From: Thermoplasmata archaeon
GTDB taxonomy: Archaea > Thermoplasmatota > SW-10-69-26 > JACQPN01 > JAJPHT01
Direction: 5' to 3'
NCBI GenBank assembly: GCA_034667685.1
Contig: JAXDQU010000028.1
Span: forward strand, 1-54,921
DNA: 54,921 nt
Under the pieces are notes generated by a model. It searched no databases. It was given only the letters and a program-made list of their open reading frames with translations, and had not been told where the DNA came from. Both the position numbers and the translations under genes were made by a program. Each line of letters starts with the position of its first letter. Position 1 is the stretch's first letter. Of the stretch, positions 1 to 36,959 are shown in pieces.

Positions 1-889
1 GCCCGTCGCGGCCGCGGAACCCGCTGGCGCGCAGGATGAACCAGCGCTTCTGGGTCGGCCCGTGGCAGGGGTACTCGCGGAAATACTCGTGGATGCGCCC
101 CGCCAGCGCGTCGCGGATGCCGGCCGCGTCGTTCGCGGCCTCGGCGGCGCCTTCGCGCGCGGCCCGCTCGCACACGTCGAGGTAGCTCGTGCCCACGCCG
201 TGGTCGGGTGCCGGAAGGCCGTTCTCGTCCGCGAACGCGCGCCATGCGCGGTTGACGCCGATGATGGTCCCGCGGTCGTCCAGGAGCGCGACGTGCAGCG
301 AGATCGCGTCGAGCATCGACCGGAGGAAGAAGCGCGAGTCGTCCAGCTCGGCCTCGGCGCGCTTGCGGTCGGTGATGTCGGAGAACGCGATCACGACGCC
401 CTCGACGGGGAGGTCCTCCTCGGCGTCGTGCGGCGCCGACGTGAAGATGGGCGCGACCGTGCAGGCGATCGGGAAGCGCGTCCCGTCGGCGCGCGTCATG
501 GTCATGTCCTCGTACGTGCCCGCCCGGCCCTCGAGCGCGGCATCGAGGCGGGCGCAATCGTCCAGCCCCACCAGCGCGCAGAAGTTGTGGCCCACGATCT
601 CCTCCGCGGGCAGGCCGACCAGCCGCGCGGCCATCGGGTTGGCGTAGGTCGCGGCGCCCTGCGGGTCCATCGTGACGACGCCTTCGCCCAGGTTGCGCGC
701 CGCGGCCCGGAGGCGCCGGATGCGGTTGAGCGCCTCGGTGGCGACGGTGTTCGCCAGGTAGGGATCGTGGTCGCGCGAGGCCGAGGCCAGCGCCTCGATG
801 ACCTCCTCCTCCGTCATCCGCCGCAGCTGGGTCGCCGTGTCGCCCGCCTTCAGGCGACGATAGGGGCGCTCGAACCGGATGTCGCCCAT
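1..889 (-). CDS. PAS-PAS sensor protein with uncharacterised N-terminal helical domain (3'-partial, runs off window start; not in ORF track)
   Basis: Manual translation from ATG 889: MGDIRFERPYRRLK...DPYLANTVATEALNR...LGEGVVTMDPQGAATYANPMAARLVG...VVIAFSDITDRKRAE (PAS/PAC), then a second PAS (LDAISLHVALLDDRGTIIGVNRAW). Open to base 1. Confidence 0.88.
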   Translation of the reverse strand, partial: MGDIRFERPYRRLKAGDTATQLRRMTEEEVIEALASASRDHDPYLANTVATEALNRIRRLRAAARNLGEGVVTMDPQGAATYANPMAARLVGLPAEEIVGHNFCALVGLDDCARLDAALEGRAGTYEDMTMTRADGTRFPIACTVAPIFTSAPHDAEEDLPVEGVVIAFSDITDRKRAEAELDDSRFFLRSMLDAISLHVALLDDRGTIIGVNRAWRAFADENGLPAPDHGVGTSYLDVCERAAREGAAEAANDAAGIRDALAGRIHEYFREYPCHGPTQKRWFILRASGFRGRDG

Positions 890-32092: not shown

Positions 32093-32259
32093 CCGCGGCA
32101 ATCGCCACAAATGGGCAACGCGGCGCGCGCGCTGAAGCAGACCATCAGCCGCGTGGGGCGCCCGCACGCGACGCAGGGCAGGTCGCCCGGACAAAGATAC
32201 ACCGTGGCCCAGTCGCGCCCCTTGAGGACGAAGGCTTGCGTGGCGGGCGGACTCGGCAC
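32086..32259 (-). CDS. Small zinc-finger-like protein (57 aa)
   Basis: CVACGRP...CGDC; GTG start inferred. Confidence 0.55.
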   Translation of the reverse strand: MPSPPATQAFVLKGRDWATVYLCPGDLPCVACGRPTRLMVCFSARAALPICGDCRGY

Positions 32260-32549
32260 ACCCTGGGGAGCCGGACACCCGCGCTTCAGGGGGCGGAGGA
32301 GGGTGCGCTGGAACGAATCGGGGTTACTTCTTCCCGAGTGAAGCGACTTAACTAGTTCTGGTGGGGCCTCGGGGGTCGACGCCTTTGGAAAAGGGTCACC
32401 CGTGCAGGCACGGCGCCGGGATTGAGCGTCTCTTCTTGGGCCGATGTGTTCACACCCCGAACCGCGGTTTAGCGAGGGGTCAGCCGGTCGCCGCCAAGGT
32501 AAAATCTCAGGTGGGTAAACGTCTAGACTGAGCCATCGTCGAGCCGACC

Positions 32550-33881
32550 ATGGGAACACCCAACGCGCAAAGCCCTGGGTCAGAGAGCGTGCCAGCTATC
32601 ACGTCGGAGCAGTTCGAGCGCGTCTTTGAGCATGCGCCGGGATTGTTCCTCGTCCTTGAGCCAAAGAGTCCGTTCCGCATCGTGGCGGTGAGCGACGCGT
32701 ATTTGCGCGCGACGATGACACAGCGCGAGTCGATCCTTGGCCGGGGAATCTTCGATGTCTTCCCCGACAACCCATCCGATATCACCGCGACTGGCGTTCG
32801 GAACTTGGGCGAATCGCTCGCGCGCGTGCTCACGCATCGGATGCCGGACACGATGGCGGTGCAGAAGTACGACATCCGCAAGCCCGCGCAGGATGGAGGC
32901 GCGTTCGAGGAGCGATACTGGAGTCCCCTCAATTCTCCCGTGCTGGACAATGAGGGGCACGTCACGTTCATCATTCACCGCGTGGAGGACGTGACGGAGT
33001 TCGTTCACCTCAAGCAGCTTGGCGAGAACCAATCGAAGCTAGCCGCGGCTCTTCGCGCTCGCGTCGAGGAGCGCGAGGCCGAGATCTTCCTTCGCGCGCA
33101 AGAGGTCGCCGAAGCCAATCGTCAGCTCCGCGACGCGAACGCGCGGCTCGAAGCCATGAACAAAGCGCTTGCCATCGCCAACGAGGGGCTTGAGAGCTTC
33201 GCGTACGTCGTGAGCCACGATATCAAAGAACCCGTCCGCGCGATCCAGACGTACCATGACCTCATCGAGGAGAAGGCGATCAATCCAGAAGTGCGCGAGA
33301 TCGTTCGCAAGAGCCACGCGAGCACGGATCGCCTCGCGAGCCTCATGCAAGGACTTCTCGAAGTGAGTCACGCGTCCCGGCTTGAGCCAGACGCCCTTGC
33401 GCCGCTAAGCGTCAAGGACGCCATCTACAGCGACGCATGCACGACGCGGTACGCCACTTTGTATGAAGAGAAGCACGTTCACCTCGACGTCCACGAGGAT
33501 CCCGATAGTGCCGTGCGGGCGACGCCCGAGCACTTGGCGCAGATCTTCGGCAATCTGCTGCTCAACGCGGCCAGGCACAACACGAGCGCATCCCCGCGCG
33601 TCATCGTCCAGATCCGGCTCCACATGGGGGCGACGGATCGCGTGCTCGTGACGGTCGAGGACAATGGACCTGGTTTCGATGAGAACATCCTTCGTCAGTT
33701 CGATCGCGCCAAGCCTGGTCGGCCGACGACGCTTCGCGGAGGATTCGGGCTCATCATCGTAAGACGCGCGGTGGAGCGGCTTGGCGGCAGCATGACGCTG
33801 ACGCGAAGCCAAAGCATGGGTGGCGCTTGCGTCGGAGTCGCGCTGCCACGCTGGGCATCCCCAACGCAAGATCTACCCTGA
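32550..33881 (+). CDS. PAS-domain sensor histidine kinase
   Basis: PAS ([23 protein letters not shown]); H-box SHDIKEP; NLLLNA, DNGPG, GFGL. Confidence 0.93.
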
Positions 33882-33907
33882 CATTTTCGATCCGGCGGAT
33901 TCGCTAG

Positions 33908-34060
33908 ATTGATGAGCGGAAGCGCGCGCGGGACGAACTTGCGACCGCCGAGCACTCGGCTGGTGAGGCCGAGGACATGATCAAGATCGCGCGCGTGGAG
34001 TTGACCAAGGCCGCGGGCGAGATCATCCAGTCGCGTACCCCTGCGCCTTCAGAGTTGTGA
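33908..34060 (+). pseudogene. Possible remnant of a PAS-linker/coiled-coil gene
   Basis: Start-less frame IDERKRARDEL..., resembling the PAC-terminal DITERKRA motif. Confidence 0.3.
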
Positions 34061-34894
34061 GTACATCGTGAGGTAGGCGGGCTCGTGCTCCCACTCCGAG
34101 GGCACGGTCCGCAGGCGTGCGCGCTTCCACGTGCCGCCGGCGGTGGACACGTCGACCACGTTTCCCTTCGCGTCGAGGGAGGGAACGCCCAGACTCATGC
34201 CAAGGAGGCTCTCAGTCGTGCGTCCGAAGAGTTCACTTGCGGCCGGATTCGCATAGCGCACGCGCCCCTTCTCGTCGAGCATGAGGATCGCGTCGGGGAT
34301 GGCGTCCAAGAGTTGCCGGTGGCGCGCTTCGCTTCGCGCGAGCGCTTCTTCGCTGCGGCGCCGCTGCGTGATGTCGCGAAAGCTCACCACGACGCCTGTG
34401 ATCTCGACCTCGCGGCGCAGGGGTACGGCGGAGTAGGCGATGAGGATCGGAGGGCGTTGGTCGTTGGCGTGGATCATGCCGTGTTCGGTCTCGATGGTGC
34501 GACCGGTGGCGAGCGCGACCTCGTCGGGTCGTTGGTCGGGATGCTCGGCGAGCGTGGGGTCCGTGAGGTGAATGATCTCGCGGGAGGGATGTCCCACGAT
34601 GTCGGTTGCCGGGCGTTGGAGCATGTCGGCTCCGGCTTGGTTGATGTACGCGATGCGCGCGTTCGCGTCCACGACGTAGACGCCGTGGCCCAGCTGCTCG
34701 ATGGCGGTGGCTTCGCGGCTGACGCGGTTCTGGGCTTCGGTGGCAAGCACGTTCGCGAGGAGAGGGTCGTTCTGGCGCGAGGCTGCGGCGAGAGCTGCGA
34801 TGACATCTTCGCTGGGCATCGTGCGGAGGAACTCGGCGGGACGCATGGCCTCCTTGAGTCGCTCGTATGGCTTGTCGAAGCGCGCGTCACCCAT
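34049..34894 (-). CDS. PAS-PAS protein with uncharacterised N-terminal helical domain
   Basis: PAS/PAC (YINQAG, FRDITQRR), second PAS (YANPAA); TGATG coupling to kaiB. Confidence 0.9.
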   Translation of the reverse strand: MGDARFDKPYERLKEAMRPAEFLRTMPSEDVIAALAAASRQNDPLLANVLATEAQNRVSREATAIEQLGHGVYVVDANARIAYINQAGADMLQRPATDIVGHPSREIIHLTDPTLAEHPDQRPDEVALATGRTIETEHGMIHANDQRPPILIAYSAVPLRREVEITGVVVSFRDITQRRRSEEALARSEARHRQLLDAIPDAILMLDEKGRVRYANPAASELFGRTTESLLGMSLGVPSLDAKGNVVDVSTAGGTWKRARLRTVPSEWEHEPAYLTMYSQL

Positions 34895-35229
34895 CAGGCT
34901 CCTCTCCGTCCATCACCTGGGGGGAGGGAAAGTCCGAAGGCTTGGGCGACGCGCGCATCGTCCGCGAAGCTTCCCGTGAGGCGGACTTGGGGTTCGGGCT
35001 GTTTTCGGATGACGGCGGGGAGGACGATGAGCTGTTCCTCGGCCGCTCGCTCGGGGTGCTCTCGAAGATCGACCACTTCGAGGTGATATCCTTGCGGCAG
35101 GTGGGCGTCGAGCGCTTTGCGGAGGTCGGCGATCGCGCGCTCGGTGTGGACGGCCGTGAGGTCGATGACGAAGAGCTGGAACGACTGTGTCGCCTTCTTG
35201 GGAATGGGCGTATTGCCCTTCGTCGGCAA
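34894..35229 (-). CDS. kaiB: KaiB-like protein (divergent)
   Basis: LFV...AIADLRKAL...YHLEVVDLREHPERAAEEQLIVLPAVIRKQPEP..RLTG; directly downstream of kaiC. Confidence 0.85.
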   Translation of the reverse strand: MPTKGNTPIPKKATQSFQLFVIDLTAVHTERAIADLRKALDAHLPQGYHLEVVDLREHPERAAEEQLIVLPAVIRKQPEPQVRLTGSFADDARVAQAFGLSLPPGDGRRGA

Positions 35230-35231
35230 GC

Positions 35232-36758
35232 CTACGCCCCGCCTTTCCTGGACTTGCTGGCCGCGCCGGGGGTGCTCCTCGTGCGCCGGTCGAGCACGAT
35301 CTCTGGATCTTCAGGCATCTCTTCGACGCTAACGCCTTTGTCGGAGAGGACGAGCTTGTGCACGTCGCTCGAGTGGTTCATGCCGCGCGATTTGACGATG
35401 TAGAGGCCGCGCAGCCGCTTTCGGCCTTGGCTCGTTTCGATCTCTCGGACGACGATCCACGTGTCGATGAGGCTCGACACGCCGATCTCGCCGCTCGTGT
35501 CGTTGAGCGCGGAGGACCCGACGAGGCTTGTGAAGAACGAGGTCACGCGGCGCCGTTTGAGGACGTCGATCATGCGCGTCGTCATGCTTTGGAGCTCGTT
35601 GGGATCGCCTTGGCCAATGAGGCTCGTCAAGGGATCGATGACGACGCTGTCCGGCTTGAAATCGTCAAGCGCTTTGTGGAGCTCAAGCAAGTGATTCTCG
35701 AGGCCCAGCGTCCCGGGTCTCGTGGAGACCAATCTCAAGAGGTCCTTGCTCATCCACTTCCTCAGATCAAGGCCGATGGACTTCATGTTCTGCACGAGCT
35801 GATCGGCCGATTCTTCGTAGCTGACGAAGAGGCATCGCTCGCCGCGCTTGCACGTCGCGATGGCGAAGGCCGCCGCGAGGCTCGTCTTTCCCGTGCCGGC
35901 CGTTCCCGAGGCCAAGATGGTGCTGCCTTTGGCGTACCCGCCGCCCGTGAAGAGCGCATCGAGCGAGGGAATGCCCGTGCTGAGCCGCTGGCCGGAAGCC
36001 GGTTGGTCGAGCGTGGCGCTCGTGATGGGGATGACGCTCAGACCGTCATCGCTGATGACGAAGGGGAACTCGTTGGTCCCATGTCGCGAGCCGCGGTACT
36101 TCACGACTCGGAGGCGCCGGATGGCGACTTGGTCCTTCACGCGATTGTCAAGGAGGATGATGCAGTCGGAGATGTTCTCTTCGAGACCGTGCCGCGTGAA
36201 CTTGTCGGCGCCGGGCTCACCCGTCACGATGGACGTGACGTGCTTCGTCTTCAGCCAGCGGAAGAGCTTCTTGACCTCGAGACGCAAGACGCCGGGGTCA
36301 CGCACACCCGCGAAGAGGGATTCGATCGAGTCGATGACGACGCGCTTGGCGCCAATCGAGTCGATGGCGTGCTCAAGACGCACGAAGATGCCGTCGAGGT
36401 TGAACTCGCCCTCCGTCTGGATCTCGTCCCGGTGGAGCACGACGTGATCGATAACGATCTTCTTCTGCGCGACGATGGGCTTGAGATCCAGGTTGAGGGA
36501 ACCCACGTCGTCGAAGAGCTCCTCGGGCGTCTCCTCGAAGGACATGAACACGCCATTCTCTGCGTGCTCGGTGACGCCCTTGACGACGAAATCGAGCCCG
36601 AGAAGCGTCTTGCCCGAACCGGCGCCTCCGCACACGAGCGTCGTCCGATCCTTCGGGATGCCACCCTGCGTCACTTCGTCGAGACCCTTGATGCCTGTCG
36701 GGCACTTGGGCAGGGCTTTGGGCGTACGCGCGTTCTTCTTGAAAGACGTTCGGGGCAT
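35232..36758 (-). CDS. kaiC: Double-domain KaiC (KaiC2/3-like)
   Basis: Walker A GGAGSGKT and GTAGTGKT; SFEE and SYEE; KYRGSRHG; phosphosite region GVSSLIDTW; KSRGMNHS. Confidence 0.95.
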   Translation of the reverse strand: MPRTSFKKNARTPKALPKCPTGIKGLDEVTQGGIPKDRTTLVCGGAGSGKTLLGLDFVVKGVTEHAENGVFMSFEETPEELFDDVGSLNLDLKPIVAQKKIVIDHVVLHRDEIQTEGEFNLDGIFVRLEHAIDSIGAKRVVIDSIESLFAGVRDPGVLRLEVKKLFRWLKTKHVTSIVTGEPGADKFTRHGLEENISDCIILLDNRVKDQVAIRRLRVVKYRGSRHGTNEFPFVISDDGLSVIPITSATLDQPASGQRLSTGIPSLDALFTGGGYAKGSTILASGTAGTGKTSLAAAFAIATCKRGERCLFVSYEESADQLVQNMKSIGLDLRKWMSKDLLRLVSTRPGTLGLENHLLELHKALDDFKPDSVVIDPLTSLIGQGDPNELQSMTTRMIDVLKRRRVTSFFTSLVGSSALNDTSGEIGVSSLIDTWIVVREIETSQGRKRLRGLYIVKSRGMNHSSDVHKLVLSDKGVSVEEMPEDPEIVLDRRTRSTPGAASKSRKGGA

Positions 36759-36959
36759 GCAGATCACGGCTCGATCTGACGGCAGGTCTTCCCGGTGCGG
36801 ATGGCGAAGCAGCGATTCAGAGAGTCTTTGGGGTACATGGGTCGCACGGAGCGGGGGCTTGGATCCTTTTCTCACGCGGAGGCGTCCTTGCTTTGGCCCA
36901 AGGACCGATGCAGCGCTCAAGCGAGCGCCACGGGCCCCCGGTTTTCTCGCTGCCGAGGG

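Follow-up and report, generated by a model that had tools for sequence, protein, structure and literature searches.

Two PAS proteins encoded at this locus, one of them beside kaiC and kaiB, share a short N-terminal segment, and the question is whether it is a domain of its own, what it could do, and whether it belongs to the Kai genes. The window (the whole stretch of DNA that was analysed) is 54,921 bases long and starts at the first base of contig C28, from a genome of 3.48 Mb with 71% G+C in 124 contigs. P0001 (positions 2-889, reverse strand) starts with MGDIRFERPYRRLK and is read for 296 aa before it remains open at the window start, which is the contig end, as an earlier note on this DNA had described. 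P0002 (34052-34894, reverse strand, with its stop codon at 34049-34051) starts with MGDARFDKPYERLK and is complete with 281 aa; its start is the ATG of MGD, because an in-frame stop lies 6 codons upstream and no alternative start codon occurs between them. Both ORFs were located on the strand and at the positions given by the earlier note, and the N-terminal sequences that it quoted are exact.

Two PAS proteins and the Kai locus

Over their full length, P0001 and P0002 are 38% identical across 224 residues (E 3e-36). In particular, 36 of 59 aligned positions are identical in the N-terminal ~60 residues (61%), compared to 38 of 117 in the first PAS domain (32.5%), which bears out the proposal that the N-termini are conserved while the PAS domains diverge. 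When the 62-residue N-termini were compared to the whole genome by tblastn, each recovered the other with an E of 1.2e-15, together with further copies. Past residue ~65, P0002 has PAS-family matches only, with a kinase or other output domain absent according to Pfam and NCBIfam; the complete copy is accordingly as bare of output domains as had been claimed. The likely orthologues of P0001, P0029 (690 aa) and P0051 (424 aa), contain further PAS domains only. The features of the window are listed in Table 1.

Table 1. Positions of the two N-terminal domains, of the Kai locus around P0002, and of the domain matches adjacent to KaiC-family genes.
Feature	Position	Strand	Evidence
N-terminal four-helix domain of P0001, residues 1-63	701..889	-	translation; own-genome profile match E 3.0e-30
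Remainder of P0001: PAS (~58-182) and second PAS-like region	2..700	-	Pfam PAS_9, PAS, PAS_4; TIGR00229 over 58-182
N-terminal four-helix domain of P0002, residues 1-65	34700..34894	-	translation; AlphaFold2 helices
P0002 PAS1 (~66-180), short PAS2 (~187-281), stop codon	34049..34699	-	PAS_4 E 3.6e-26, PAS E 8.2e-20, TIGR00229
kaiB	34894..35229 (ORF 34897-35229 + stop)	-	PF07689, 51.9 bits vs cut-off 27
kaiC, two RecA-like domains	35232..36758	-	PF06745 E 3.6e-107, two stretches
PAS-HisKA-HATPase histidine kinase	32550..33881	+	HATPase_c 8.7e-18, HisKA 1.6e-08, PAS_4
KaiC-family-adjacent domain matches	G000 C28, C97; G070 C53, C22; G093 C97 (weak); G123 C188		

At P0002, a two-domain KaiC gene, kaiB and a PAS gene are consecutive on one strand, and the junction TGATG joins the last two, where the TGA of kaiB and the ATG of P0002 share 1 nt. 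The earlier note had placed P0002 inside a kaiCB operon. The Kai context holds, but not the word inside: because kaiB and kaiC lie directly upstream, with the TGATG overlap, P0002 is the last gene of the kaiC-kaiB string. The two domains of KaiC are encoded at 35319-35981 and 36024-36704. The longest kaiC ORF has 694 aa and reaches 37316, with an Arg/Ala-rich N-terminal stretch of ~186 residues that falls outside the low-GC block; the true start is probably the ATG at 36758 (508 aa), just ahead of the first KaiC domain, and the 694-aa ORF over-extended.

The histidine kinase and P0002 converge with 167 bp between them and share one low-GC block (GC 0.62-0.63); an own-genome profile search finds the N-terminal domain absent from the kinase. 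The block at 32200-36900, which holds the kinase, P0002, kaiB and kaiC, has a G+C of 0.60-0.68, compared to 0.69-0.73 in the segments that flank it, and a GC3 of 0.75-0.85, compared to 0.93-0.97 in the neighbouring genes and in the other paralogues. The block has the appearance of a compositional island and was possibly acquired. Because P0002 bears a family-specific domain, an acquisition would imply that the donor was a relative, or that the fusion took place afterwards.

Sequence, architecture and predicted fold of the N-terminal domain

By tblastn and profile search, the genome contains six copies of the domain. Besides P0001 and P0002, these are found on a 290-aa protein with two PAS domains (contig C123), on a kinase of 816 aa that has HisKA, HATPase and three PAS domains (C97), and on two divergent proteins of 155 aa (C36) and 254 aa (C106), whose helical coiled-coil-like tails have no Pfam match; the divergent pair scores 40.8 and 21.7 bits, respectively, against a profile built without them. 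The earlier note had asked whether a profile built from the N-termini would find further homologues. The six-copy profile matches 333 clusters at E<=1e-3 among 1.84 billion representative proteins, 229 of them at E<=1e-10, and both this genome and related ones carry more copies.

In 145 of the 165 proteins examined, residue 1 is also the first residue of the domain, which opens with [MVL]GD. In 17 of the remaining 20, M, V or L directly precedes GD, so that their called starts are probably too far upstream. What follows the domain varies. Among the best 149 of the 333 representatives, PAS occurs in 134, HATPase_c in 28, GAF in 27 and HisKA in 25; P0143 has the order domain-GAF-PAS-HisKA-HATPase, with the domain immediately before GAF; and 9 of the 165 proteins are 120-140 aa long and consist of the domain and two hydrophobic helices with basic flanks, with no PAS. 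In every architecture observed, the fourth helix of the domain passes without a break into the helical or dimerising element that follows it. Both P0002, with 281 aa, and the C123 copy, with 290 aa, are complete ORFs, and apart from the N-terminal domain itself neither carries an output domain. Many of the PAS-only representatives of ~300 aa may be kinases truncated on short metagenome contigs, and the statement that there is no other output is therefore drawn from these two proteins and the orthologue of P0002, which is 75% identical to P0002 within the domain and 58.8% identical in the rest of the protein. The segment is a distinct autonomous domain, strictly N-terminal, that combines with several downstream architectures.

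Its consensus is MGDxRFxxxYxRVxxAxDxxxAxRxLxDEEVIxALAAASRxxDPYLANVLATEAxNRxRR. Among 142 sequences, G2, D3, R5, A34 and N48 are invariant, while L35, L50, A51, E53, N56 and R57 occur with a frequency of at least 0.94. The helix-4 residues T52, E53, N56, R57 and R60 are conserved at 0.85 to 0.99 and form a polar stripe (i, i+4, i+8) that, judging by its conservation pattern, would fit a binding or stapling surface. AlphaFold2 predicts a compact four-helix unit for the 66-residue segment of P0002 with a 142-row alignment (pLDDT 94.8, pTM 0.81), with helices at residues 4-15, 19-25, 28-40 and 44-65; this segment was used instead of the whole of P0002, for which a prediction without alignment was unusable (pLDDT 39.7).

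The proposition that no named family has this motif is upheld by every search for known relatives. Residues 1-57 of P0001 and P0002 match no named Pfam or NCBIfam family, nothing exceeds a cut-off on residues 1-60 in either collection, and the 63-aa segment alone yields zero Pfam families even at E<=10. A confident match to a known domain, which was named beforehand as an outcome that would overturn the proposal, was found neither in Pfam and NCBIfam nor by PDB sequence or PDB fold. In particular, a PDB sequence profile search gave a best E of 0.031, to unrelated helical proteins, and Foldseek against the PDB gave none at E<=1e-3 (best E 1.5). An exhaustive VIA-align comparison to 48,161 chains gave heterogeneous and unrelated helical proteins with a best Z of 6.2 and none of 8 or more; this best Z lies under the level that helical models reach by chance, and a new fold is not thereby proven. 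The ESM Atlas returned a best feature score of 0.78, for leads that are structurally generic helical hairpins at chance level. Further, no such domain appears in the titles and abstract openings of the papers listed on archaeal Kai/PAS operons or Thermoplasmatota kinases, or in passages of PMC4794148 and bioRxiv 10.1101/2022.01.26.477890.

The other outcome named beforehand was that the segment is a generic PAS N-cap. PAS models omit residues 1-57, starting at the earliest at residue 58 in P0001 and 65-66 in P0002, and the domain is also present on transmembrane-hairpin, coiled-coil and GAF proteins, which together speak against an N-cap. The long kinase models that extend back to residues 11-33 score 25-49 bits, against cut-offs of 400-725.

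Two candidate memberships were rejected. An HPt phosphotransfer four-helix bundle is ruled out, as there is no conserved phospho-accepting His on any helix; the share of His is at most 0.14 at any position of the domain, and nowhere is it the commonest residue. Membership in DUF3040 (PF11239) fails with a best score of 20.5 bits, below the cut-off of 24.7, over profile positions 19-83 only. Sub-threshold DUF3040 matches were found for the short forms (5 of 16 at E<=10 and 3 of 10 at E<=0.05), and none over the cut-off occurs in the 9 family genomes. DUF3040 proteins are small membrane proteins, and the likeness consists of helix 4 and the two transmembrane helices of the short forms; in contrast, helices 1-3 of the new domain are left uncovered, and the match is probably due to the hydrophobic hairpin.

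Distribution, gene neighbourhoods and the link to Kai genes

The domain is present in 9 of 401 Thermoplasmatota genomes sampled across the phylum, all within one GTDB family (8 of 8 genomes, plus the present one), with 3-15 matches in each; it is absent from the 392 genomes outside the family, of which 6 belong to the same order and 6 to the same class. A DNA pattern of the helix-4 motif, scanned over 185,579 species with one genome each, was found in 23 places. Eighteen are in records titled Thermoplasmatota archaeon, and three (L092, L099 and L102) are in a single record titled 'Proteobacteria bacterium', where the full domain is encoded (97-99 bits). This title is probably wrong, because the metagenome-assembled genome carries an archaeal ribosomal protein S8e together with the three domain copies. 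The last two, in bacterial records, are attributed to chance, because a stop codon precedes the motif and nothing else matches. One database protein with the domain is named as Candidatus Thermoplasmatota. Based on the 401-genome survey, the motif scan and this named protein, the family is restricted to one family of uncultured soil Thermoplasmatota and is expanded there, in keeping with the lineage-expanded module that had been proposed.

The gene neighbourhoods were compared around the 6 own copies and 59 domain matches from the 8 related genomes, over ~6 kb to either side or up to the contig end where this was nearer. Genes were called by a crude GC3-based method and the neighbours were clustered; the domain gene itself was called in 52 of the 65 loci. 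The 13 loci outside the neighbour count are the own C106 copy, L034, L043, L048, L061, L065, L072, L076, L078, L080, L083, L086 and L087, two of which, L048 (G123:C188) and L061 (G093:C97), are sites with KaiC-family matches. No neighbour family occurs in more than 4 of the 52 counted loci. Receiver-domain-like genes (in one genome only), ABC-ATPase-like genes, a PAS/kinase cluster and KaiC-family genes recur in 4 loci each, and a large protein with a CheB methylesterase-like N-terminus recurs in 3; the receiver-, ABC-ATPase- and CheB-like names were judged from the first 60 residues, the KaiC and PAS/kinase clusters excepted.

Individual loci have features of their own. The C36 copy (L003 7537-8001 = G000:C36:9536-10000) is followed on the same strand, ~270 bp downstream, by an SMC-like gene of 1197 aa, past which are two further same-strand ORFs of 327 and 210 aa that are kleisin-partner-like by appearance only; this adjacency is absent from the related loci examined. 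At G093:C89 (L046), G076:C48 (L055) and G108:C25 (L082), small domain proteins adjoin large proteins of 773-1035 aa on the same strand, whose N-termini, judged from the first 60 residues, are like a CheB-type methylesterase.

Across the family, 4 of the 9 genomes, which all belong to one genus, have KaiB, compared to 9 of 9 for the domain; two of the five KaiB-less genomes are 97% and 100% complete, and in 2 of the 4 KaiB genomes the contig with kaiB bears no domain match. These counts contradict the suggestion that KaiB is the common partner. At G093:C102:49937-52376, a tandem pair of kaiB-like genes stands by a two-domain kaiC, on a contig without domain matches. The sole close orthologue of P0002 among the 9 genomes (G070:C53, 62% identity) also stands behind kaiC and kaiB.

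KaiC-family matches occur in 9 of 9 family genomes. Among the 66 domain matches, six have a PF06745 match at a distance of at most ~2.1 kb, which is more than chance, and the other 60 have none nearby. Another case in the present genome is an apparent operon on C97 (L002 6074-10376 = G000:C97:16073-20375) that encodes a single-domain KaiC-like ATPase (362 aa, PF06745 4.5e-43), a 256-aa protein with a hydrophobic N-terminus and no Pfam match, and the domain-bearing 816-aa kinase, whose start is overlapped by the end of the 256-aa gene. At G000:C119:5043-8108 and G108:C26:35022-38108, a KaiC-family gene with three PF06745 matches in one frame is followed by a PAS gene without the domain. Because such domain-less PAS genes follow KaiC, and because the bacterial kaiC-kaiB-PAS/histidine-kinase operons described in passages of PMC4794148 are without the domain, the Kai link seems to track PAS and kinase genes, not the domain. 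Overall, the domain is not specifically tied to Kai clock genes, and KaiC-family ATPases are possible but weakly supported partners.

Possible roles and comparison with known systems

The reading that we prefer, tentatively and with a probability of roughly 45%, is that the domain is a lineage-specific cap for protein-protein assembly or docking; we infer both that it binds protein and what it binds. Residues 1-~65 form an autonomous, compact four-helix domain at the extreme N-terminus, and its long fourth helix leads straight into what comes next, be it the N-cap helix of PAS, a GAF domain, a coiled coil or a hairpin of transmembrane helices. According to this reading, the cap would sit atop these usually dimeric elements. 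It may self-associate with copies on other paralogues, or recruit a shared partner. In proteins that have PAS domains only, P0002 and the C123 copy among them, the domain would be the sole candidate for the output end, and in P0002 it may link that network to a PAS sensor whose gene is translated together with kaiC and kaiB. Against this reading, no conserved neighbour indicates a partner in the 52 counted loci, and the invariant polar residues may be structural, stapling the N-terminal segment onto helix 4, or may line a small-ligand site. A stronger form, in which sensors, membrane anchors and coiled-coil scaffolds would assemble through a homotypic N-terminal plug into mixed complexes, is unlikely. 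A two-copy complex prediction of the 66-residue domain, run without controls, scored 0.10 against a mark of 0.42, which speaks neither for nor against self-association.

A rival reading is a passive structural cap, a unit that would do no more than stabilise or lengthen the dimerising helix behind it (PAS N-cap, transmembrane helix or coiled coil), would lack a partner and would hold its invariant polar residues in an internal network. The continuity of helix 4 (44-65) with the following element in all architectures agrees with it, as do the failure to find a conserved partner gene among the neighbours and the helix 3/4 motifs ALAAAS and ANVLATEA, whose richness in Ala and small residues fits tight intramolecular packing. 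However, at least 10 near-invariant polar positions are kept over 142 sequences despite differing downstream domains, and retention on otherwise domain-less small membrane proteins is unexpected for a passive cap, making it a reading to which we give a minor share of belief. That the domain is an input, binding a small molecule or ion and relaying its state down helix 4 to PAS, GAF or kinase, is distinctly unlikely. The N-terminal position of the domain is typical of inputs, it stands upstream of kinases (the 28 representatives with HATPase_c), and D3, R5, N48, E53, N56 and R57 could make a polar pocket; but the domain is short (~60 residues) and its predicted fold is compact, Cys, His and Met residues that could bind metals or haem are not conserved, and it is also carried by transmembrane-hairpin and coiled-coil proteins without a signalling output. 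Known four-helix sensor domains gave no fold match to the domain model by Foldseek or VIA-align, where the best matches did not exceed chance level.

The idea in the earlier note that the domain plugs PAS sensors into KaiB or KaiC draws on P0002 being translationally coupled to kaiB behind kaiC, on the kaiC-kaiB-PAS order kept in G070, on the C97 kinase located two genes behind a KaiC-like ATPase, and on the six matches near PF06745. The narrower range of KaiB, the 60 domain genes without a nearby KaiC-family gene, the domain-less PAS genes behind KaiC, and the bacterial operons of this type in the passages of PMC4794148 all count against it and make it very unlikely. The KaiB-like N-domain of SasA and the C-domain of KaiA are known KaiC/KaiB-binding modules. 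Neither is among the PDB fold and sequence matches listed, an absence that, for the fold list, leaves kinship possible; the predicted domain is all-helical. Least probable, to the point that we give it hardly any weight, is a DNA-binding helical domain that would make the PAS proteins one-component regulators. The helix 3-turn-helix 4 arrangement, with N, T, N, R and R on helix 4, is loosely like a helix-turn-helix, and a putative transcription regulator stands at rank 18 of the fold search (Z 5.1). Against these points, the net charge is approximately neutral with an invariant Glu on the same helix face, the domain is fused to membrane hairpins and histidine kinases, and there is neither a sequence match to a helix-turn-helix family nor a prominent fold of this kind among the best fold matches, which are heterogeneous with Z<=6.2.

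Whichever role applies, a new family with a confidently predicted fold marks one uncultured soil archaeal lineage and expands within it, and several PAS proteins, among them one co-translated with KaiB and KaiC, have no other non-sensor part. If the domain is an assembly or docking module, then it would show how these archaea wire numerous cytoplasmic sensors, along with a Kai-type timer, to shared targets in the absence of classical output domains, and it would offer a handle for pulling down these targets. If its association were homotypic, the system would correspond, in archaea, to the homotypic-adaptor systems of eukaryotes, and the KaiBC timer would be one input, through P0002. As a structural cap only, it would still be a lineage marker and a domain worth naming.

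Among known systems, the D/D domain of the regulatory subunits of protein kinase A is an N-terminal module for homotypic docking and dimerisation. Like it, the new domain is small and all-helical, stands at the very start of signalling proteins and could serve assembly, an analogy in the way that it might work only; a PDB sequence profile, Foldseek and VIA-align found no sequence or fold relationship to modules of this type. With respect to its gene context, the purple bacteria Rhodopseudomonas palustris and Rhodobacter sphaeroides have kaiC-kaiB-PAS/histidine-kinase operons, according to passages of PMC4794148, and the likeness to the present locus lies in kaiC, kaiB and a PAS gene that are tightly spaced on one strand. 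In contrast to the operons described there, the PAS gene here is without a kinase part, the kinase is convergent downstream, an extra N-terminal domain is present, and the host belongs to Thermoplasmatota. In its position, the domain is comparable to the PAS N-cap (A'-alpha helix) and other helical N-extensions of PAS sensors, in that it occurs on PAS, GAF and histidine-kinase proteins, directly before a PAS core, and that its last helix is continuous with the N-cap helix. Unlike these, it is self-contained, with ~60 residues and its own invariant motif, lies outside the PAS models and also occurs without PAS. It is a new domain family within a known kind, the accessory domains of modular sensor proteins.
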